Shown piece by piece: positions 5,398 to 31,691 of a stretch of DNA of 64,000 bases. Position 1 is the stretch's first letter. Each line of letters starts with the position of its first letter. Under the pieces are notes generated by a model. The model was not told the DNA's origin. It did no database searches and saw only the letters and a program-made list of their open reading frames with translations. The DNA is from a virus. Lineage: Duplodnaviria; Heunggongvirae; Uroviricota; Caudoviricetes. The stretch lies in the IMG/VR virus record IMGVR_UViG_2695420859_000012; one strand, written 5' to 3'. Both the position numbers and the translations under genes were made by a program.

Positions 5398-6231
5398 TTA
5401 CGCACGGCGAACAATCATACGGTTGTTGATGTAACTGACCAGCAAGCGCCAGGTACTACGAGCCACATGCACGTTTGCAGCTTTACCGGTACGGTACATG
5501 TTGGTTGTTTCACCGATGGACTCTGACAAAATGCCATCCTCTCGTGCTGCGGCTACATCATTGCCATTTGCGATCTCACACGCTTCGTTGACAACGGCAA
5601 GCATCAACGCTTCTTTGAAGTAGTCAGGGAACTCTTCAAACTTCTCCTGCGTCATCTTTTCCCAATCGACTAAATCATGCCGGTACGCTCCATCTGCTTC
5701 CCACGGAATGTCATACACATTCAGCATATTTTGAGGGCGATCGTATCGGTCAAAGTCGATACGTAGAATTTTGCGGATTGAGAACGGTAAAGTTTTAATT
5801 CGTCTGGTAGCCTCAATGAGACGCTTGCGCATTAAGCCTTCACCATCCGACAGCAAAGTGTCCCCATTCAGCATATCGATCGCCTGCATTTGAGCATCAG
5901 CGACAGTTGCAAACGACTGTTCTGGTATCGACAGTTCAAAACTATTCAGCAGAACATACATTTGCCGCTCTTCATGCGTCAGACCCGATGCAACAGCCTT
6001 CACAATGACGTACCGCAGATCTCGCTCTTTCTCAGAGAGCTGGTTATATTCAGCCGACACGACAACCGGAATCGACATTTGACCGCTGGTAATTTCTAGC
6101 GGCTCGCCATCAACGAGAATAGCCCCGGTGCTGTCCTTTACTGTGTAGGTGGCAGATTCGATATCCAGCACGTTGAAGGCAAATGAAAGAGAAACAGCTT
6201 CACCGCTACGATACGAGTCGATCTGCGCCAT
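5398..6231 (-). CDS. Phage structural protein (hypothetical, 277 aa)
   Basis: Long ORF within the co-directional structural operon, translationally coupled to the downstream gene. Confidence 0.5.
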   Translation of the reverse strand: MAQIDSYRSGEAVSLSFAFNVLDIESATYTVKDSTGAILVDGEPLEITSGQMSIPVVVSAEYNQLSEKERDLRYVIVKAVASGLTHEERQMYVLLNSFELSIPEQSFATVADAQMQAIDMLNGDTLLSDGEGLMRKRLIEATRRIKTLPFSIRKILRIDFDRYDRPQNMLNVYDIPWEADGAYRHDLVDWEKMTQEKFEEFPDYFKEALMLAVVNEACEIANGNDVAAAREDGILSESIGETTNMYRTGKAANVHVARSTWRLLVSYINNRMIVRRA

Positions 6232-6665
6232 TACTCACCGCCTTGTGCTTTCAGGATGCCGTCAATCATTTCGACAATTCCTTTCGCTTTGACACCAACC
6301 TGATTACCAATAACTCGTAGACCGGCAATACCTTCGTTGTCTGCAATTGACTCCAGCTCTTCTCGTGTGAAAGTCTGGATCTGTTTGGCCGGTTCATCTG
6401 GTGTCCCACGTTTCATTGGCACAATGTCAGGCGCTGCTGGCTCGGTAATCAGGTCTGCTGTCAATTCACCACGATCACTGTATGCGGCAGACGGAGAAAC
6501 ATTTTTGCCCTCTACTGTTGACGCTCGCATTGAAGCACAAATCCTCTGCTGATCGATAAAAGGCAACTCCGCTACGGATACCCCGTTCTCGAACTGAACG
6601 CCACACAGCATTCCCGAATAACCGGAAAATTGCGGTTCTAATAAAACAATTTTTGCTGGTTTCAT
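6231..6665 (-). CDS. Phage structural protein (hypothetical, 144 aa)
   Basis: ORF with a start/stop overlap to the next gene at 6231. Confidence 0.45.
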   Translation of the reverse strand: MKPAKIVLLEPQFSGYSGMLCGVQFENGVSVAELPFIDQQRICASMRASTVEGKNVSPSAAYSDRGELTADLITEPAAPDIVPMKRGTPDEPAKQIQTFTREELESIADNEGIAGLRVIGNQVGVKAKGIVEMIDGILKAQGGE

Positions 6666-6709: not shown

Positions 6710-7630
6710 TTATTCCTGTGCGGCAGTAACTTCTACAGTTGCTGTCGCTTTGTGGCTACCATCTTGGGTAGTAACCTCGATTGTGGCAGTACCAGCCGCA
6801 ACACCAGTTACAACACCGGTTTCGCTGTCAACCGTTGCAAACTCGGTATTTTTGGATTCCCAAGTAACGGTTTTATTTGTGGCTCCTGCCGGCTCGACAT
6901 TTGCTGTCAGCTGAACAGTTTTGTTTGCCTCAACGGTTGTGCTATTTGGGTCGATTTCGACGCCGGTAACAGCCACAACAGGCGCAGTTACTTCCACCGT
7001 TGCAGTTGCCTTTTTGCTGCCATCTTGGGAAACGATCTCAATCGTCGCAGTGCCAACTTCTACACCAGTAACGTTCCCGCTCTGGTCTACCGTTGCCTTA
7101 TCTTCATTTTTGGAAGACCAGGTAACAGCCTTATTCGTCGCATTTGACGGCTGAACATTCGCTTTCAGACTGACTGATTTCCCTTTCTCAACAGACGTTG
7201 ATTCTGGCGTTACCGTTACGGATTGAACGGCTACCGGATTTACGGTGACTTCCACTGAAGCGGAAAGCTGGGTTTCCTGATCAGTTGCAGTAATTTTTAC
7301 TTTGCCTGGTGCTACGCCAGTTACTAATCCAGTGCCGTTAACGGTTGCAATTTGGTCATTGGCTGACTTCCAGGTGAATGAACTGGCACTCTTACCCATA
7401 CTAATACCTGCACTAAGTTGAACAGTTTTCCCAACCAAAACTGACGGTGAAGCCGGGGTTATGTTTACGGATTGGGAGAGGGGAACCGCCTGCAAACAAG
7501 CAGATAGCTGACTTTGTTGCCGCTCGGTTAAAGGTTCATCGGAGATAGAATTGGTAAATCCGGCACGGCACATATGCCCCGTAAAATCCGAAAATGCCTC
7601 TTCCGTAATCTTCATCTTTTGTTCTGGCAT
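6710..7630 (-). CDS. Ig-like (Big_2 x3) domain protein, probable capsid decoration / surface protein
   Basis: Three tandem repeats of the Big_2-type pattern (KTVQLTANVEPAGATNKTVTWESKN...ATVD...GVVTGVAAGTATI). Located directly after the major capsid gene and its terminator. Confidence 0.6.
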   Translation of the reverse strand: MPEQKMKITEEAFSDFTGHMCRAGFTNSISDEPLTERQQSQLSACLQAVPLSQSVNITPASPSVLVGKTVQLSAGISMGKSASSFTWKSANDQIATVNGTGLVTGVAPGKVKITATDQETQLSASVEVTVNPVAVQSVTVTPESTSVEKGKSVSLKANVQPSNATNKAVTWSSKNEDKATVDQSGNVTGVEVGTATIEIVSQDGSKKATATVEVTAPVVAVTGVEIDPNSTTVEANKTVQLTANVEPAGATNKTVTWESKNTEFATVDSETGVVTGVAAGTATIEVTTQDGSHKATATVEVTAAQE

Positions 7631-24326: not shown

Positions 24327-24499
24327 AAAGCAATCCTTAAACAAGATGTTTTCTTAATGGTGTTATTATCGCAATAACGCACAGGCGAAAAAGGATTTTA
24401 TTCCGGTGAATGTGGTTTTGGCAGTGAGTTTTCAGGTTCAGTACAGAGTACACTTTTTACATTATTCTGATTTAGTGGCCGAAGATGGCTGGTGGGCAG

Positions 24500-24850
24500 A
24501 ATAATCATCTCCCCGAAAACCTACTGAAATCGATTGTGACCCGTTGGCTGTCTGGCACAATTACGCTGTAACTGGGCATTCAGAGGGAATCCAGCGGTAA
24601 GTAGGTTCGCCTTCACGTGAGCGCCTCTCTTCTTCCCGCACATTACAGGTGGGTAGCCGCAACTCTCCCTCTCGCTATGCCGGTACGCCGCCGTTCCTGA
24701 ACCGGCATCGAGCCTTTTCCCGAAATCCACACAGGCAACTCGACCGTTTCCCTGAAAACCTCCAGCCGTTCCCCGAAGGCAACCCAGCCGTTTCTGTAGC
24801 GGGATGCAACCTTTTCCCTGTATGGACCGAAGGCTGACCGTAGGGGTGTT
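24500..24850. repeat. Degenerate direct repeats of a CCGTT(T)CC(C)GAAAA-type unit (second locus at about 21537-21680)
   Basis: At least six related copies here (CCGTTCCTGAACC, CCTTTTCCCGAAATCC, CCGTTTCCCTGAAAACC, CCGTTCCCCGAAGG, CCGTTTCTGTAGCG, CCTTTTCCCTGTATGG) and four at 21537-21680. Confidence 0.5.
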
Positions 24851-25019
24851 ACGGGGGATAAAATCAGGAGTTGAATAAATACGAAAAAGGAGGCGACACC
24901 CCTCCTTCCCTCCCCACTTATACATACCTGGCTTCTTCGCTATACATGTTGTGTTTTATCTGTCTCAACCTCTCTATAGGCGTTAATGCTCACTCCTTCC
25001 AGAATGTTCTATACGGCAA

Positions 25020-25620
25020 CTATTTCTGTTGGTGAATTGGGTGTGTTGTTCTCTCTGTCGGTGTATGTGGTTTCGTTCGTTTTGCGGTGGTTCTTCTATG
25101 GGGTGTTCTCGTCGTTTTGGTGATTGTTCTTCTCCGTGTATGGAGTAATGGCAGGTGGGCGATTCCTTTCGTTGTTGTGTTTGAGTTGTTTGTCTGGAGT
25201 GTGTGAAAGGCTTTTGCAGTTATTCGTGTATTGGGTAATGGCATTTCCCGTGATTGTTGTGTTTCGTGTCTTTTGGGATTGAGAGAAACCTTGCGGTTAC
25301 AGGCTTCGTTGGGGTTTCAGTGATTCTGGTGTTCTTCGCTGTTTGGGGAATGGCGTGTCGTGGGTATCGCGCGTATGAATGTTTTCGGATTGCCTGTGAA
25401 AGTTAGGTTGGTTGTCCGGTAGCCTGGGGAGAAGAGGTGGGTCTTTTCGGTAGCCTGGGGAGAAGAGGTGGGTCTTTTCGGTAGCCTGCCATAAAGAGGT
25501 TGGTTGTTTTTGGAAATGGCATTTGTGTTATTTAGTTGTTTTGTTATGCCTGAAAATAAGTTGTTTATATGGTTGTGTAACGCAACGGGAGCGATTTTGA
25601 GCGTGTGTTTTTGTTGGTAG
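25020..25620. repeat. G+T-skewed non-coding repeat region with a 32-bp tandem direct repeat (about 25418-25500)
   Basis: Forward strand strongly G/T-rich for about 600 bp; recurring GG(A/G)(G/A)(T/A)AATGGC units at about 25142, 25232, 25345 and 25511; GGTAGCCTGGGGAGAAGAGGTGGGTCTTTTC repeated about 2.3 times in tandem. Only low-complexity ORFs are present. Confidence 0.6.
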
Positions 25621-25921
25621 TGTGTTGGGTCGTCTGTGGTGAAAATTGGACGCTGTGGCGCTGTCTGCTGCGTAGAGTTACGGGTATAAGCAGTGATGTG
25701 TGAAAACGTCAATTTTTTAGACCAAATCGGGTGAAAGCGTTGATGTTTCGTTGATCTGTTATTCAGTTGTTTTCTTGATTGTATAAACAACTATAACTTA
25801 TTGATATTTAAGGATGTGATTGCGGGTATGGAAGAAGAGTAGTGGCGATCAACGGATTCTTATAGAAAAGAATCAAATTGTGACCGCCATTATCAACTGA
25901 TTGATTTGTTTACTTGTGTAG

Positions 25922-26320
25922 TCAGTTCTCGAAATGAATAGGGTCAACGTAATGCCGCTCACCGCTTTTACCATTACACAGCACTGTAACTTTCGCCTTT
26001 TCACTCCAGGCTGAGTATAGAAAGTTCCCATCAGGTTGAACATGGTAACGAGAGAAGTAAACATCGCCGACTGAGGCGTCGAACATGTTCCTATCTTTTT
26101 CACTTTGGGCAAGCGAGATGGATATCACCGAATTCCCATTTGGGGAAACGATTTTAAATTTATTCCCTATATCCATAACAATATTGTAACCAGGTAATTG
26201 CTTGTGTGTTTCCGGATCTATTTTCATGCATCGTGGGTACACGATAGTGTTAGGCTCTTCAACTGGCGTGGCATTAGCAGAAAGCACAAAAAATATTAGT
26301 GCCAATGGTGCATATTTCAT
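25922..26320 (-). CDS. Secreted protein (hypothetical, 132 aa)
   Basis: Predicted signal peptide (MKYAPLALIFFVLSANA). Confidence 0.5.
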   Translation of the reverse strand: MKYAPLALIFFVLSANATPVEEPNTIVYPRCMKIDPETHKQLPGYNIVMDIGNKFKIVSPNGNSVISISLAQSEKDRNMFDASVGDVYFSRYHVQPDGNFLYSAWSEKAKVTVLCNGKSGERHYVDPIHFEN

Positions 26321-26432
26321 TTATCCCTCACAATTTCCAATTTTCCAGACCATCGTCTATTTCAGCGTCAGGGTGGAATTGTACCGCATCAAATCCTACA
26401 TCGAGCACCTTTCGAATGTTCTTGATGGTTTG

Positions 26433-26621
26433 CTATGTGACACCGTAATCACGCAGCTTTTCTTCCCTCCCCTGACTCCCCCATACTCCGTTTCTGTACC
26501 CAATTGAGTCCGAGATTGTATGGTGCTCGAAACAGATATTTGGTAGACACTCAGAGTCATGCTGTGTAACGAGGGTAGGGCTACTAACTGTCGTCTTATA
26601 CAATTTGGTGAGTTTCAGCAT
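26433..26621 (-). CDS. Small hypothetical protein (62 aa)
   Basis: Start overlaps the stop region of the upstream gene; no other support. Confidence 0.25.
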   Translation of the reverse strand: MLKLTKLYKTTVSSPTLVTQHDSECLPNICFEHHTISDSIGYRNGVWGSQGREEKLRDYGVT

Positions 26622-26857
26622 TTTACCACCCCGTTCGGAAACAACTCATTCGCCGTAGTTGATATAACCTCCCAATTAACGCCGACATCAGCGTTATGGC
26701 ATTGTCTGATTTTTTGCATCACCTGTACGCATTGTTCATCAGTGAGATCTGTCCTTACTTCAGCAATATCTTCTTTGTGCCACATAACCATGAGTAAGGG
26801 TTCGTCTTCTGGATAGTTTTTCAGTTTCTCGATGATTTCTTTTGCTGTTCCAAACAT
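26615..26857 (-). CDS. Hypothetical protein (80 aa)
   Basis: Start placed at the second Met after a GGAG RBS; two copies of the conserved upstream element directly 5'. Confidence 0.45.
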   Translation of the reverse strand: MFGTAKEIIEKLKNYPEDEPLLMVMWHKEDIAEVRTDLTDEQCVQVMQKIRQCHNADVGVNWEVISTTANELFPNGVVKC

Positions 26858-26969
26858 CTTCATCTCCTAAACAATTTGTTTTCTTATATGACTTATTATC
26901 TCAATCAACAAAAGGTAGAAAACAAATTGTTTTAGAGTTTGTTAAAGTCAGAAGGGGTTGTGTCTATAT

Positions 26970-26995
26970 GAAAATGCCCGGCGTGTTGCCGGGCA
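26970..26995 (-). terminator. Rho-independent terminator of metG
   Basis: GCCCGGC-AACAC-GCCGGGC hairpin followed by ATTTTCAT on the reverse strand, 25-45 nt after the metG stop. Confidence 0.7.
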
Positions 26996-27016
26996 TTGCG
27001 AAGAGAGGTTGTTTAA

Positions 27017-29050
27017 TTACTTAACCTGGTGGCCAGGTTTAGCACCAGCATCCGGGCTTAACAGGAAGATATCTTTCCCGCCGGGGCCAGCAGCCATCAC
27101 CATGCCTTCAGAGATACCGAAGCGCATTTTACGTGGTGCCAGGTTAGCCACCATAATGGTGTGACGACCAATCAGTGCCTGTGGATCTGGATAAGCGGAA
27201 CGGATGCCTGAGAAGACATTACGCTTTTCACCACCGAGATCCAGCGTCAGGCGAAGCAGTTTGTCAGAACCTTCTACAAACTCTGCGTTTTCAATCAGCG
27301 CCACGCGCAGGTCAACTTTGGCGAAGTCGTCAAAGGTGATAGTTTCCTGAATCGGGTCGTCAGCCAGTGGGCCAGTTACCGGTGCGGCTGTGGCTTTCAC
27401 TTCTTCTTTGGATGCTTCCACCAGTGCTTCAACCTGCTTCATATCGATGCGGTTATACAGTGCCTTGAACGGATTCACTTTATGGCCCAGCAGCGGTTGC
27501 TGGATACCATCCCAGGTCAGTTCTGTATTCAGGAATGCTTCTGCACGTTCAGTCAGTTTCGGCAGTACCGGTTTCAGGTACGTCATCAGCACGCGGAACA
27601 GGTTAATGCCCATAGAGCAAATCGCCTGCAGATCGGCATCGCGTCCTTCCTGCTTTGCCACCACCCACGGAGCCTGTTCATCAACATAGCGGTTAGCCAG
27701 GTCAGCCAGTGCCATGATTTCACGGATAGCTTTGCCAAATTCGCGGCTTTCCCATGCTTCGCCAATCACTTCAGCGGCATCAGTAAAGGTTTTGTACAGT
27801 TGCGGGTCAGCCAGTTCGCTTGCCAGCACGCCGTCAAAACGCTTGTTGATAAAGCCTGCATTACGGGAGGCCAGGTTAACCACTTTGTTAACGATATCGG
27901 CATTCACACGCTGAACGAAATCTTCCAGGTTGAGATCGATATCATCAATGCGCGAAGAGAGTTTCGCAGTGTAGTAGTAACGCAGGCTGTCGGCGTCAAA
28001 ATGATTCAGCCAGGTGCTGGCTTTAATAAAGGTGCCGCGAGACTTGGACATCTTCGCGCCGTTCACCGTCACATAGCCGTGAACAAACAGGTTGGTCGGC
28101 TTGCGGAAGTTGCTGCCTTCCAGCATGGCAGGCCAGAACAGGCTGTGGAAGTAAACGATATCTTTGCCGATGAAGTGGTACAGCTCGGCGGTGGAGTCTT
28201 TCTTCCAGTATTCGTCGAAGCTGGTAGTGTCGCCGCGTTTGTCGCACAGATTCTTGAAGGAACCCATGTAGCCAATCGGCGCGTCCAGCCAGACGTAGAA
28301 GTATTTGCCCGGTGCGTTCGGAATTTCAAAACCGAAGTAAGGTGCGTCACGGGAGATATCCCACTGTTGCAGGCCGGATTCAAACCACTCCTGCATTTTG
28401 TTTGCCACCTGCTCCTGCAACGCACCGCTGCGGGTCCATGCCTGCAACATTTCGCTGAAAGAAGGCAGATCAAAGAAGAAGTGTTCGGAATCACGCATTA
28501 CCGGTGTAGCGCCAGAAACCACTGATTTCGGCTCGATCAGTTCCGTCGGGCTGTATGTCGCGCCGCAGACTTCACAGTTATCGCCGTATTGATCCGGCGC
28601 TTTACATTTCGGGCATGTGCCTTTTACAAAACGGTCCGGCAGGAACATGCCTTTTTCCGGGTCGTACAGCTGAGAGATGGTGCGGTTTTTAATAAAACCG
28701 TTCTCTTTCAGGCGAGTATAGATAAGCTCGGACAACTGACGGTTCTCTTCGCTGTGCGTCGAGTGATAGTTGTCATAGCTGATGTTAAAGCCTGCGAAAT
28801 CAGTCTGATGTTCCTGACTCATTTCGCCAATCATCTGTTCCGGTGTGATACCAAGCTGCTGTGCTTTCAGCATGATTGGCGTACCGTGGGCATCGTCGGC
28901 ACAGATGAAATTAACCTCGTGGCCGCGCATTCGCTGGTAACGAACCCAGACATCAGCCTGGATGTGCTCCAGCATATGGCCGAGGTGGATTGAGCCGTTA
29001 GCGTACGGCAGCGCGCACGTCACCAGAATTTTCTTCGCGACTTGGGTCAT
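27017..29050 (-). CDS. metG: Methionine--tRNA ligase (host-type, near-identical to E. coli MetG by recall)
   Basis: 677-aa protein from [29 protein letters not shown] with HLGH and KMSKS (GAKMSKSRG) class I signatures, C4 zinc knuckle and C-terminal tRNA-binding domain. The track ORF extends 43 codons further upstream to 29179. Confidence 0.95.
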
Positions 29051-29207
29051 AGTAGGCATTACTTCTTTGTAGTGAAAAGGGGCTTGATAGTAACAAAATG
29101 GCCTTATGTCTGCCATGTGATAACAGCATTTCTCATAAATGATTAAATGTCGTAGCTGGAGTACACTACAAGGCGACAATTGCGCAAATTAAAATAAAGG
29201 AGACGGG

Positions 29208-30308
29208 ATGAGCGAGTCCAAATCGCCGGATGCCCTGAGAGCAATGGTAGCCGGTACGCTGGCTAATTTTCAGCACCCAACCCTGAAACACAACCTGACT
29301 ACGCTTAAAGCGTTACACCATGTTGCGTTGATGGATGACACACTGCATGTCGAACTAATCATGCCTTTCGTGTGGAATAAGCCTTTTGAAGACCTGAAAG
29401 AGCAATGTAGTGGTGATCTGCTACGTATCACTGGCGCAAAGGCTATTGACTGGAAGCTGTCGTACAACATTGCCACGCTTAAGCGCGTCAAAAACCAACC
29501 AGGCATTAATGGCGTTAAGAACATTATCGCCGTCAGCTCAGGCAAGGGCGGCGTGGGTAAATCCTCCACGGCGGTAAACCTGGCACTGGCGTTGGCTGCT
29601 GAAGGTGCGAAAGTTGGTATTTTGGATGCCGATATCTATGGTCCATCAATTCCAACCATGCTGGGCGCGGAAAACCAACGTCCAACCTCACCGGACGGTA
29701 CTCACATGGCACCTATCATGTCTCATGGCCTGGCAACCAACTCTATTGGTTATCTGGTCACCGACGACAATGCAATGGTGTGGCGTGGACCGATGGCCAG
29801 CAAGGCGCTGATGCAGATGTTGCAGGAAACACTGTGGCCTGATCTGGACTATCTCGTTCTCGATATGCCACCGGGCACTGGTGATATTCAATTGACGCTG
29901 GCGCAGAACATTCCTGTAACTGGTGCGGTTGTGGTAACTACGCCGCAAGACATCGCGCTGATCGATGCGAAGAAAGGCATTGTGATGTTCGAAAAAGTCG
30001 AAGTGCCGGTACTGGGTATCGTTGAAAACATGAGTGTGCATATTTGCAGTAACTGCGGTCATCACGAGCCAATTTTTGGCACCGGTGGCGCACAGAAACT
30101 GGCCGAGAAATACAACACGCAGTTGTTAGGCCAAATGCCACTTCATATCTCTCTTCGTGAAGATCTGGATAACGGAACACCAACCGTTATTAGTCGTCCA
30201 GATAGTGAATTTACGGCTATTTATCGTGACCTCGCAGATCGCGTTGCTGCCCAAATGTATTGGCAAGGTGAAGTAATACCTGGCGAAATCGCATTCCGCG
30301 CAGTGTGA
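29208..30308 (+). CDS. apbC: Fe-S cluster carrier ATPase Mrp/ApbC (host-type)
   Basis: P-loop ([20 protein letters not shown]), conserved CxxC (CSNCGHHEP); divergently arranged with metG as in enterobacterial chromosomes. Confidence 0.95.
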
Positions 30309-30317
30309 TAAAAAGGT

Positions 30318-30444
30318 GGTGCTTTTGCCGTTACGCACCACCCCGTCAGTAGCTGAACAGGAGGGACAGCTGATAGAAACAGAAGCCACTGGAGCACCTC
30401 AAAAACACCATCATACACTAAATCAGTAAGTTGGCAGCATCACC
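30318..30444 (-). mobile_element. insA: IS1 left-end remnant (terminal inverted repeat plus first 24 codons of insA), truncated internally
   Basis: Track ORF 30126-30389 (-) begins [24 protein letters not shown], the InsA N-terminus, then reads antisense mrp. Upstream of it lies the IS1 terminal repeat GGTGATGCTGCCAACTTACTGAT (reverse-complemented on the forward strand, ending at about 30442-30444). Confidence 0.8.
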
Positions 30445-30606
30445 GAGCGCCAGCGGCGAACATATGAGCTTCGGAAATACTAGACATTCTTAACTCCGTT
30501 GTTTTCTAGTTGTGGTTATTTTCACAAATAAGAAAAGATAGAAAACAATTTATTTAAGGCCACAACTTATGGCCTTTATTTATTCATGCCGAAGGATTTG
30601 TAGCGT

Positions 30607-30987
30607 CTAATTGCCGGATAAAATGGGGTGAGGTGCTTGCCAGTAGGCTCCACCGTTCCATGTGAACCCCATGCGAATAAGAGTGTTTATTGCGGCTTTG
30701 GTAGACTCCGATTCGACACTGGCTTTACGAAACTCTTGAACCTCTTTCGCCAACTTGTATGTAATTGTGCAGGGGACGATTGCAGCCCAGCCTTTCTCAT
30801 GACTGTTAATGACCATCTGGATGTGACCATCCAGAATAGGTTGATTAGGCATGTTATTGAAAATGTCTGCCTGTTTTTGAATGTGAAGAAAAAGCCTTGC
30901 CAGCGCCATTTGCTCACTACGAGACAAGGGATTATCAAGAGGGCTTTTTGCAAAAGCTGCTATACGCTGTGCATCAATGCCAAACAT
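30607..30987 (-). CDS. Hypothetical protein (126 aa)
   Basis: ORF translationally coupled to the upstream gene; hairpin downstream. Confidence 0.45.
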   Translation of the reverse strand: MFGIDAQRIAAFAKSPLDNPLSRSEQMALARLFLHIQKQADIFNNMPNQPILDGHIQMVINSHEKGWAAIVPCTITYKLAKEVQEFRKASVESESTKAAINTLIRMGFTWNGGAYWQAPHPILSGN

Positions 30988-31691
30988 CAGCGCACCTCAC
31001 CATCTTTATGGCTGGAGTTAACTTCCGTCATTAAATGTCTGACGTAATCGACAAGAGAGCCGCCTGGTGGAATCTGGCATTCCTCAACTAACTGGAAGTA
31101 GATATCCGCTGCATTACGTGTATTGCTACCCGCGCATATTCTTTCTTCCCGAAGTGCATGAAGCTCGTTGATCAAACGGTCACACTCTCCGTTACGCTGA
31201 TCCACAACGGCCTCAAGCTCTGCGACGCGTTCACCTGGCGTCTTACCTTCTTTGCGTTGGATGGTAACGACGAAATCGCCAATTGCAGGGACGTTGTAAT
31301 CCAGCTCAAGGTAGTTTTTGGCACCGCTGCGGACGAACTCACCCGCGAACATGGTGGCGAACATCGCAGAGGCCACTTCTCCGTTGAAAAGTGACTCCAG
31401 ATCTAACGGAGTCCCGGCAGCAAGAGCCTCTTTTGCTGTATCCATTGCATCCATGAACCGATCAAACTCACTAGCGCGCTTTTCCAGGTCTTTCCATTGC
31501 TCGCTCCAACGTTTGGCAACGAAGTCTATGAATGTTTTCGCGGATTCATCAAAATTCCCCTCAAACTTAACGATGCCTTTATCAATAATGATCTGGCCTA
31601 CCGCATCCTCTGCATAACCTTTCAATGTAAACTTGAAAGGAAAATCGGAATGGCCTGTGACGTTAAAATGCTCTAACTGGAGGTTGCTCAT
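30987..31691 (-). CDS. Hypothetical protein (234 aa)
   Basis: ORF with an upstream AT-rich palindrome. Confidence 0.5.
   Translation of the reverse strand: MSNLQLEHFNVTGHSDFPFKFTLKGYAEDAVGQIIIDKGIVKFEGNFDESAKTFIDFVAKRWSEQWKDLEKRASEFDRFMDAMDTAKEALAAGTPLDLESLFNGEVASAMFATMFAGEFVRSGAKNYLELDYNVPAIGDFVVTIQRKEGKTPGERVAELEAVVDQRNGECDRLINELHALREERICAGSNTRNAADIYFQLVEECQIPPGGSLVDYVRHLMTEVNSSHKDGEVR

Follow-up and report, generated by a model that had tools for sequence, protein, structure and literature searches.

Introduction

Host-derived auxiliary genes, including those for aminoacyl-tRNA synthetases (aaRSs), are a kind of cargo already known from phages and plasmids. The case described here is a divergently transcribed pair, metG (methionyl-tRNA synthetase, MetRS) and apbC (also called mrp; an iron-sulphur (Fe-S) cluster carrier), found in IMG/VR record IMGVR_UViG_2695420859_000012. 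The 64,000 nucleotides (nt) analysed, referred to below as the window, are from an SSU5/pHCM2-like phage-plasmid of Escherichia coli, and the pair (the block) lies between positions 27017 and 30308.

Full-length MetRS homologues occur among the viral aaRSs of giant viruses and of jumbo or huge phages, such as Microcystis phage MaAM05 and two ~635-kb uncultured phages, at 24-30% identity and in very large, mostly lytic genomes. In the present element, by contrast, the protein is 98.8% identical to the host enzyme, the genome is a temperate phage-plasmid of ~110 kb, apbC is a neighbour, and the gene still recombines with that of the host. Plasmid-borne second synthetases that give inhibitor resistance, as MupA does for mupirocin, are an established kind. 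The isoleucyl-tRNA synthetases (IleRS) MupA and MupB, and the second MetRS of Gram-positive bacteria, resemble the present case in being extra synthetases on a mobile element in cells that keep the chromosomal gene, but resistance alleles of the MupA type are strongly diverged, whereas here no residue is specific to the mobile copies and host tracts replace parts of the gene freely. Closer in position is the ydfZ moron of SSU5 and pHCM2, which is likewise host-type cargo in the same slot between the same repeats with one gene running against leftward phage transcription; the cargo described here differs in its size (3.3 kb), in including an essential translation gene, and in being found in the Escherichia clade only. 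Specialised transducing phages (lambda gal/bio) and capture mediated by insertion sequences (IS) also place chromosomal genes in a temperate phage in packageable form. Such captures, however, are recent, identical to their host and usually defective, whereas this pair differs in sequence from that of every host sampled, is fixed in a clade whose elements seem complete, and is subject to purifying selection. Taken together, the evidence set out below makes it probable, though by no means certain, that the pair is cargo of long standing, kept by selection, a defining feature of the Escherichia clade of SSU5-like phage-plasmids and a source of additional MetRS and ApbC dosage.

The element and its metG-apbC pair

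Proteins encoded in the window include a portal, a large terminase, a major tail protein, helicases, NrdA and an SbcC-like nuclease. Gene order around the pair (a DUF4942 methylase-like gene, an Ead-like gene, an accessory slot holding the pair, then small leftward genes) is collinear with SSU5 and with pHCM2 of S. Typhi; structural genes and synteny agree with the proposal, made when the locus was first noticed, that the motif-bearing surroundings of the pair are phage DNA. Positions 26000-31500 are 100% identical to complete, non-mobilizable plasmids of ~113 kb from independent human, swine and chicken E. coli, and the matching records are non-mobilizable plasmids of ~105-115 kb, typed as IncFIB or rep_cluster_488. 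The G+C content of the block is ~0.52, against ~0.42-0.46 in its flanks. One member with the block is Cyrano, which is pLF82 of the adherent-invasive E. coli (AIEC) strain LF82; it is present at ~5.5 copies/cell, and its virions have been demonstrated by quantitative PCR and transmission electron microscopy (PMC9928086). As this element makes virions, and as carriers have been deposited as phages, a packaged and transferable metG, as originally suggested, is plausible. The deposit of another carrier, PhiR41_1, names K-12 MG1655 as host.

Both genes are intact. metG (27017-29050, minus strand) encodes a methionine--tRNA ligase of 677 amino acids (aa), and apbC (29208-30308, plus strand) an Fe-S cluster carrier P-loop NTPase of 366 aa; each product is a full-length match to its equivalog model, well over the cut-off (MetG to NF001100, 1019.8 bits against 587, residues 4-677; ApbC to NF008669, 759.3 bits against 348). 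The MetG translation, which also matches PF09334, PF19303 and PF01588, shows HLGH, KMSKS and the zinc knuckle CPKC...CEVC, and its C-terminal tRNA-binding/dimerisation domain is recovered by TIGR00399 (163 bits); that of ApbC, also matched by PF10609, shows a deviant Walker A (GKGGVGKS) and the CXXC motif as CSNCGH. To judge from its 98.8% identity to E. coli MetRS and the purifying selection on its gene, the phage-plasmid MetG would be expected to carry out aminoacylation. The intergenic control region (29051-29207) is nearly invariant in an alignment of the phage-plasmid copies; against E. coli, the ~60 nt nearest metG are similar, while the half nearest apbC is diverged, with indels.

Distribution and merodiploidy

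The block, with the same left junction, is present in 208 PLSDB plasmids, 202 of which cover at least 80% of it. These 208 carriers comprise 191 from Escherichia (including E. albertii) and six from Shigella, and 203 are classed as non-mobilizable. It is present also in four phage records (two of CMS-2020a, Cyrano and PhiR41_1), at 95.6-98.1% identity. The DUF4942 gene of the backbone, by comparison, is spread over 557 plasmids (205 Escherichia, 185 Klebsiella, 81 Enterobacter, 47 Salmonella and 24 Citrobacter), and of these phage-plasmids essentially only the Escherichia/Shigella members have the block. Both genes are annotated as intact coding sequences (CDSs) in nearly all the plasmid records listed.

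A query with the chromosomal locus gave as many chromosomal places (5,426) as there were complete E. coli genomes, together with 221 plasmid places. Carriers are therefore always merodiploid, and no chromosome has a second copy; whether the chromosomal pair persists beside the mobile one, a question raised from the outset, is thus answered in the affirmative for all 5,426 genomes. The extra pair is present in ~4% of complete E. coli genomes. Addiction through loss of chromosomal metG was considered and rejected, the chromosomal copy never being lost in the 5,426 genomes, and so was integration at metG, no chromosome among them having two copies.

Divergence and origin

From stop codon to stop codon (27016-30304), the block shares 89.7-90.5% identity with E. 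coli chromosomes, and the two genes contribute unequally. metG has 94.2% nt identity to that of E. coli HB101 and its product 98.8% aa identity (eight substitutions), whereas apbC has 81.9% nt identity to its E. coli counterpart and its product, which is three residues shorter at the N-terminus, 93.8% aa identity. The two proteins had initially been described as near-identical to those of E. coli, a description these values do not bear out. Among the matches listed, apbC is approximately equidistant from Escherichia, Citrobacter and Salmonella (80-82.6% nt, ~95% aa), 82.6% being the best identity in any species, and the best non-coli metG-apbC locus is that of Escherichia sp. E1V33 (87.6%), followed by Citrobacter (~85%). 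A locus recorded as 'Enterobacter hormaechei B56' (CP170191.1) was discarded as a relative because its metG-apbC is base-for-base that of E. coli HB101/K-12; the chromosome record looks mislabelled or contaminated.

The phage-plasmid backbone, on the other hand, is shallow: its synonymous divergence (dS) is 0.02-0.07 within the Escherichia clade, compared with 0.45 to SSU5, pHCM2 and pDR25-3. With apbC 18% diverged and the clade so little diverged in its backbone, the divergence of apbC must predate the radiation of the clade, so that the donor was a different enterobacterial lineage. The chromosomal metG-apbC loci of E. albertii, E. fergusonii, E. marmotae and E. ruysiae lay outside this donor comparison; the triangle inequality excludes as donor any Escherichia species that is within ~10% of E. 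coli. Judged by its divergence, then, the pair is neither recent nor from E. coli.

All but two of the phage-plasmid-specific substitutions in ApbC lie in residues 1-73 (window 29208-29430), a cluster that includes W44L, S61K, A62P and A72G in addition to the shortened N-terminus; the ATPase/CXXC core is conserved.

Selection on both genes

Among six phage-plasmid copies, the ratio of non-synonymous to synonymous divergence (dN/dS) was 0.004-0.022 for metG and 0-0.022 for apbC, compared with 0.09-0.33 for two neighbouring phage genes. In eleven copies, each gene was represented by 11 distinct DNA alleles, while the ApbC protein was identical in 9/11. Because some of this variation is imported from chromosomes, private alleles were counted separately, only minority alleles absent from 12 chromosomal references being included. 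Synonymous outnumbered non-synonymous private alleles by 51:9 in metG and by 19:1 in apbC, where ~23% synonymous would be expected at random. By both measures, metG and apbC are under very strong purifying selection.

Exchange with the chromosome

Diversity in metG exceeded that of the backbone several-fold (dS among phage-plasmids up to 0.32), and the differences lay in tracts. In pairwise comparisons, the sites where either copy matches E. coli formed marked clusters (runs test, p < 0.0002 for several pairs); runs identical to the HB101 chromosome were as long as 204 bp (p = 0.0005), and apbC of Cyrano contained an 80-bp run identical to E. coli on its 18%-diverged background (p < 0.0005). 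When all sites at which any of the eleven copies carries a base that none of five E. coli alleles shows were plotted, each copy showed a different mosaic. The base was of non-E. coli type in all eleven copies at 7/182 such sites in metG and at 148/214 in apbC, where E. coli-type tracts were restricted to the conserved centre of the gene. In pEC881_2, approximately two-thirds of metG is of E. coli type, and the 5′ 1300 nt are 99.1-99.2% identical to ~1,450 chromosomes. Mosaics of donor-type and E. coli-type sequence such as these indicate recurrent gene conversion with the chromosome.

Alleles may also have passed the other way. Between the FDAARGOS_1260 chromosome and that of a close relative, NGF1, the difference is a ~400-bp tract (metG nt 1323-1731), within which FDAARGOS_1260 has the bases of most phage-plasmid copies and is unlike other E. 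coli. Over metG nt ~1300-1740, ~238 of 5,422 chromosomes were at least 95% identical to the window copy, and the rest 91-93%; E. coli metG alleles differ from one another by up to 4.6%. Transfer from phage-plasmid to chromosome may have occurred in this part of metG.

Function and alternative explanations

How might such a pair have been acquired and kept? A single capture would have brought the whole divergent pair, with its control region and terminators, from an enterobacterium other than E. coli. It would have landed in the accessory slot between two promoter/operator-like repeats where SSU5, pHCM2 and Enterobacter relatives hold ydfZ. Purifying selection would then retain this second copy in cells that always keep the chromosomal pair. 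The similarity of metG to the host gene would allow RecA-type conversion to overwrite patches of metG, and shorter central patches of apbC, time after time; every copy would thereby become a different mosaic, gene conversion being a side effect of retained homology. The pair would be an auxiliary module of the moron type, its native promoters driving expression while the element is a multicopy plasmid-prophage. What it might add is ordinary MetRS and ApbC activity, and so more Met-tRNA charging (for initiation and elongation) and more Fe-S delivery, with a presumptive benefit to host fitness under stress or to translation capacity on induction. An altered or resistant enzyme would not be the means: among the residues of MetG, none is fixed in the phage-plasmid copies yet absent from eight chromosomal references, and the eight MetG differences from K-12 are conservative and polymorphic. 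Together with free replacement by host tracts, the lack of any such residue argues for an ordinary MetRS and against models of resistance, immunity or escape.

Several points weigh against selective maintenance of an old cargo. While the presence, intactness, distribution, merodiploidy, selection and mosaicism of the pair are observed, its expression from the phage-plasmid and any gain from it are deduced, and an advantage of extra MetRS or ApbC is presumed. Low dN/dS could be partly imported by conversion from constrained chromosomal alleles, a problem that the private-allele test lessens but does not remove, as chromosomal donors may be unsampled. A MetG search of genome contigs gave no donor lineage among the matches listed. 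A consensus promoter scan was silent on the phage-plasmid metG-apbC intergenic region, but is uninformative, because the native E. coli intergenic region is equally silent. Finally, metG of the E. albertii plasmid NZ_CP099888.1 carries an indel of 1 bp and lacks a CDS annotation, and pCPF6 has an IS transposase in the metG-apbC intergenic region; loss of the pair is thus tolerated at least occasionally.

Neither of the two explanations offered in the original prediction accounts for these data. A chimeric assembly of chromosomal and plasmid contigs might be suspected from the higher G+C of the block, but independent complete plasmids match the 5.5 kb across both junctions at 100% identity, 202 plasmid records contain at least 80% of the block, and block and left junction are shared with four phage records from unrelated studies. 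Moreover, the block differs from every E. coli chromosome and so cannot be mis-joined host reads, and we give this explanation practically no credence. Recent capture of the current host's metG-mrp, by specialised transduction or through IS1, is scarcely better placed, divergence and distribution both refuting it. It would explain the host-type genes, their chromosomal architecture (a divergent pair with its own terminators) and the IS1 fragment that abuts apbC. A fresh acquisition would, though, have at least 99% identity to its source, whereas the block is ~90% identical to E. coli chromosomes, and apbC 82%; the same left junction is found in ~200 elements that differ from each other by up to 5%; and most relatives are without the IS1 remnant, which, as one IS1 end only, does not make a composite transposon. 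Decay of a neutral passenger that has yet to run its course is also hard to sustain, and we consider it quite unlikely. Occasional disruptions (the 1-bp indel and IS insertion) are what it would predict, but copies that differ at up to 5% of sites encode an ApbC identical in 9/11 and a MetG with few, conservative changes, the synonymous excess among private alleles is incompatible with neutrality, and the dN/dS of neighbouring phage genes is 5-20 times higher.

Two further readings do invoke a role for the pair, and both seem improbable, the first somewhat less so than the second. Were the pair a homology platform, by which a phage-plasmid that has no integrase recombines with, integrates into or mobilises the chromosome at metG, protein function would be secondary. 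The abundant conversion tracts shared with the chromosome and the phage-plasmid-like tract at metG nt 1300-1740 in ~238 chromosomes would be as expected, but Campbell-type second copies numbered zero in 5,426 genomes, apbC (82%) is too diverged for efficient recombination yet its protein is kept identical in 9/11 copies, and private mutations are overwhelmingly synonymous in both genes. Alternatively, the copy could be a distinct MetRS variant, whether resistant to an inhibitor, a back-up escaping a phage or competitor factor, or an addiction module that allows chromosomal loss. It has a precedent in second synthetases of the MupA type, although the MupA/MupB models are only weak matches to the MetG of the window, and the grouping of phage-plasmid-specific ApbC substitutions in residues 1-73 could be read in its favour. 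MetG itself, however, has no fixed residue specific to the phage-plasmids and only conservative, polymorphic differences from K-12, host sequence freely replaces large parts of metG, which would destroy any variant-specific property, and the chromosomal copy is never lost. Selective maintenance of an old, dosage-adding cargo therefore remains the explanation we prefer.

A bolder extension of this preferred reading is put forward tentatively, as a possibility to which we would give a small but appreciable weight. Beyond supplying spare dosage, the metG copy could be a standing recombination interface through which alleles pass both ways between phage-plasmids and Escherichia chromosomes, and its retention beside an HD-domain gene of the same slot resembling (p)ppGpp hydrolases could reflect selected manipulation of tRNA charging and the stringent response in favour of carriage or induction. 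Bearing on the first part is the presence of a phage-plasmid-like metG tract in ~4% of chromosomes.

As a whole, the original prediction was partly right. That a host-derived housekeeping pair is embedded in a phage-plasmid is upheld, the genes (an intact metG and a divergent mrp/apbC), the flanking motif and the phage setting all being as described; near-identity to E. coli and the sequence of the metG terminator were not, and its interpretation is supported in part.

Comparison with other records and wider relevance

The genes are already annotated in public records, and what is unusual is the documented recombination with an essential host gene. Any match to MetRS was found in only 26 of 50,697 phage records, many of them short or chromosome-like; beyond the four E. 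coli elements, the credible others are distant homologues in jumbo or huge phages. Among candidate independent cases, Acinetobacter phage MD-2021a (CAKLQF020000011.1) was set aside as a chromosome-like contig (dcd, pfs, mrp, metG, emrB), Pseudomonas phage Y5 as an unannotated record marked UNVERIFIED, and several Listeria, Staphylococcus and Salmonella 'phage' records as fragments of 2-8 kb. OR850913.1 ('Salmonella phage S.Kent 1-2-1') also matches MetRS and looks like bacterial chromosomal DNA or a short fragment; chromosome-like or short records that are labelled as phage inflate the apparent count of phage aaRSs. A full-text literature search returned no paper linking SSU5, pHCM2, pLF82 or phage-plasmids with metG, MetRS or apbC, and papers on LF82 made no mention of the metG-apbC module.

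Approximately 1 in 25 completely sequenced E. coli thus has a second, multicopy and potentially phage-transmissible MetRS gene. If expressed, it would shift the dosage of both an essential enzyme of translation and an Fe-S carrier in strains of clinical relevance, among them AIEC LF82, Shigella sonnei and E. albertii, and it could confound metG-based phenotypes (tolerance, persistence) or the targeting of MetRS by inhibitors. The copy-specific conversion tracts offer a natural system in which to measure recombination between phage-plasmids and an essential gene. For those who scan genomes, the locus is an example of a host housekeeping gene in a phage that is neither an artefact nor a recent accident.

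The accessory slot and its flanking repeats

In the 64 kb, the motif TTGTTTTCT-N32-AGAAAACAA is present at two places only, 26876-26925 and 30499-30548, and it matched in 0/100 shuffles; a relaxed search of the window added one poor match, not above the shuffle level. The statement that the same motif lies on both sides of the pair is thereby confirmed. Its two copies make up a direct repeat of 60 nt (73% identity), and each is itself built as an inverted repeat. The left promoter/operator-like element (26864-26937, minus strand), with 21-nt arms at 26864-26884 and 26917-26937 around a 32-nt spacer, is directly upstream of a leftward DUF1380 gene (26615-26863), and the block conserved among relatives begins at its first position, 26864. 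The right promoter/operator-like inverted repeat (30489-30558, minus strand) corresponds to one that lies upstream of the HD-domain gene in relatives. In the backbones of SSU5 and pHCM2, the same motif is found in intergenic regions, immediately upstream of leftward genes. Its presence in these backbones indicates that it is phage DNA rather than chromosomal DNA, and from its position we infer that the 60-nt repeat is a phage promoter/operator element.

The two repeat copies bound an accessory slot. In SSU5, the slot contains SSU5_103, ydfZ and three further genes, the last being the HD-domain gene; in an E. coli relative, pM-199-4197, it contains metG, apbC, an S24/UmuD-like gene, three small genes and the HD-domain gene. 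Among the relatives examined, Enterobacter pDR25-3, pHCM2 and SSU5 have ydfZ in the slot in place of metG-apbC, which gives the slot the look of a hotspot where host genes are taken on as cargo. The ydfZ gene, for a putative selenium delivery protein, is host-type and on the opposite strand, at 6032-6235 in the SSU5 locus, 5459-5662 in the pHCM2 locus and 7084-7287 in a third non-Escherichia phage-plasmid locus (L089).

A terminator-like hairpin follows metG (26973-26997, minus strand; a 10-bp stem and then UUUUCAU, 20 nt past the metG stop), with a folding energy of -19.1 kcal/mol (z = -5.8). The original prediction held that the metG terminator had been retained. A strong hairpin is indeed found at the position of the chromosomal terminator, but its sequence is not that of the E. 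coli terminator and is unrelated to those of Citrobacter, Salmonella and Kluyvera; it was seen in phage-plasmid loci only and was absent from all chromosomal loci fetched. A second terminator-like hairpin (30556-30576, plus strand) is just downstream of the leftward gene at 30607-30987.

The IS1 scar

An IS1 fragment adjoins apbC, as had been noted at the outset. It is the remnant of one end (the left inverted repeat, IRL, and the start of insA), ~130-134 bp long (30315-30444, minus strand) and 99% identical to IS1 of P1; an 8-bp microhomology, GGTGGTGC (30315-30322), links it to the apbC terminator hairpin, of which the left half is present. The complete hairpin, GGCGGTGCAATGCACCGCC, closes apbC in Cyrano, PhiR41_1 and most plasmids, where the S24-peptidase gene comes next. 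On the other side of the remnant, alignment with the HD-domain gene of pM-199-4197 identified a homologue of SSU5_099 truncated by IS1 (30440-30487, minus strand), of which the first 14 codons are left, reading MSSISEAHMFAAGAR and then a stop; the annotation of the SSU5_099-like gene is a guanosine polyphosphate hydrolase/synthetase homologue. Compared with pM-199-4197, ~3.1 kb has been lost, from the S24/UmuD-like gene and three small genes through to the HD-domain gene. The right junction is secondary, the IS1 remnant marking a later deletion that only a sublineage shows. As a vehicle of capture IS1 was ruled out, being absent from most relatives and fused at an internal site to the apbC hairpin; nor does a single ~130-bp end, on one side only, constitute a composite transposon.

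A region with no annotated CDS

Positions 24357-25922 contain ~1.5 kb that has no annotated CDS in an identical plasmid. The plus strand there is strongly GT-rich (GC skew +0.37, AT skew -0.33), with a 31-bp tandem repeat at 25417-25504 and no Rfam match; an Rfam scan of 20-35 kb as a whole gave no matches, nor did a tRNA scan. The region could serve as an origin or specify non-coding RNA, and SSU5, pHCM2 and pDR25-3 have comparable unannotated gaps at the equivalent place.

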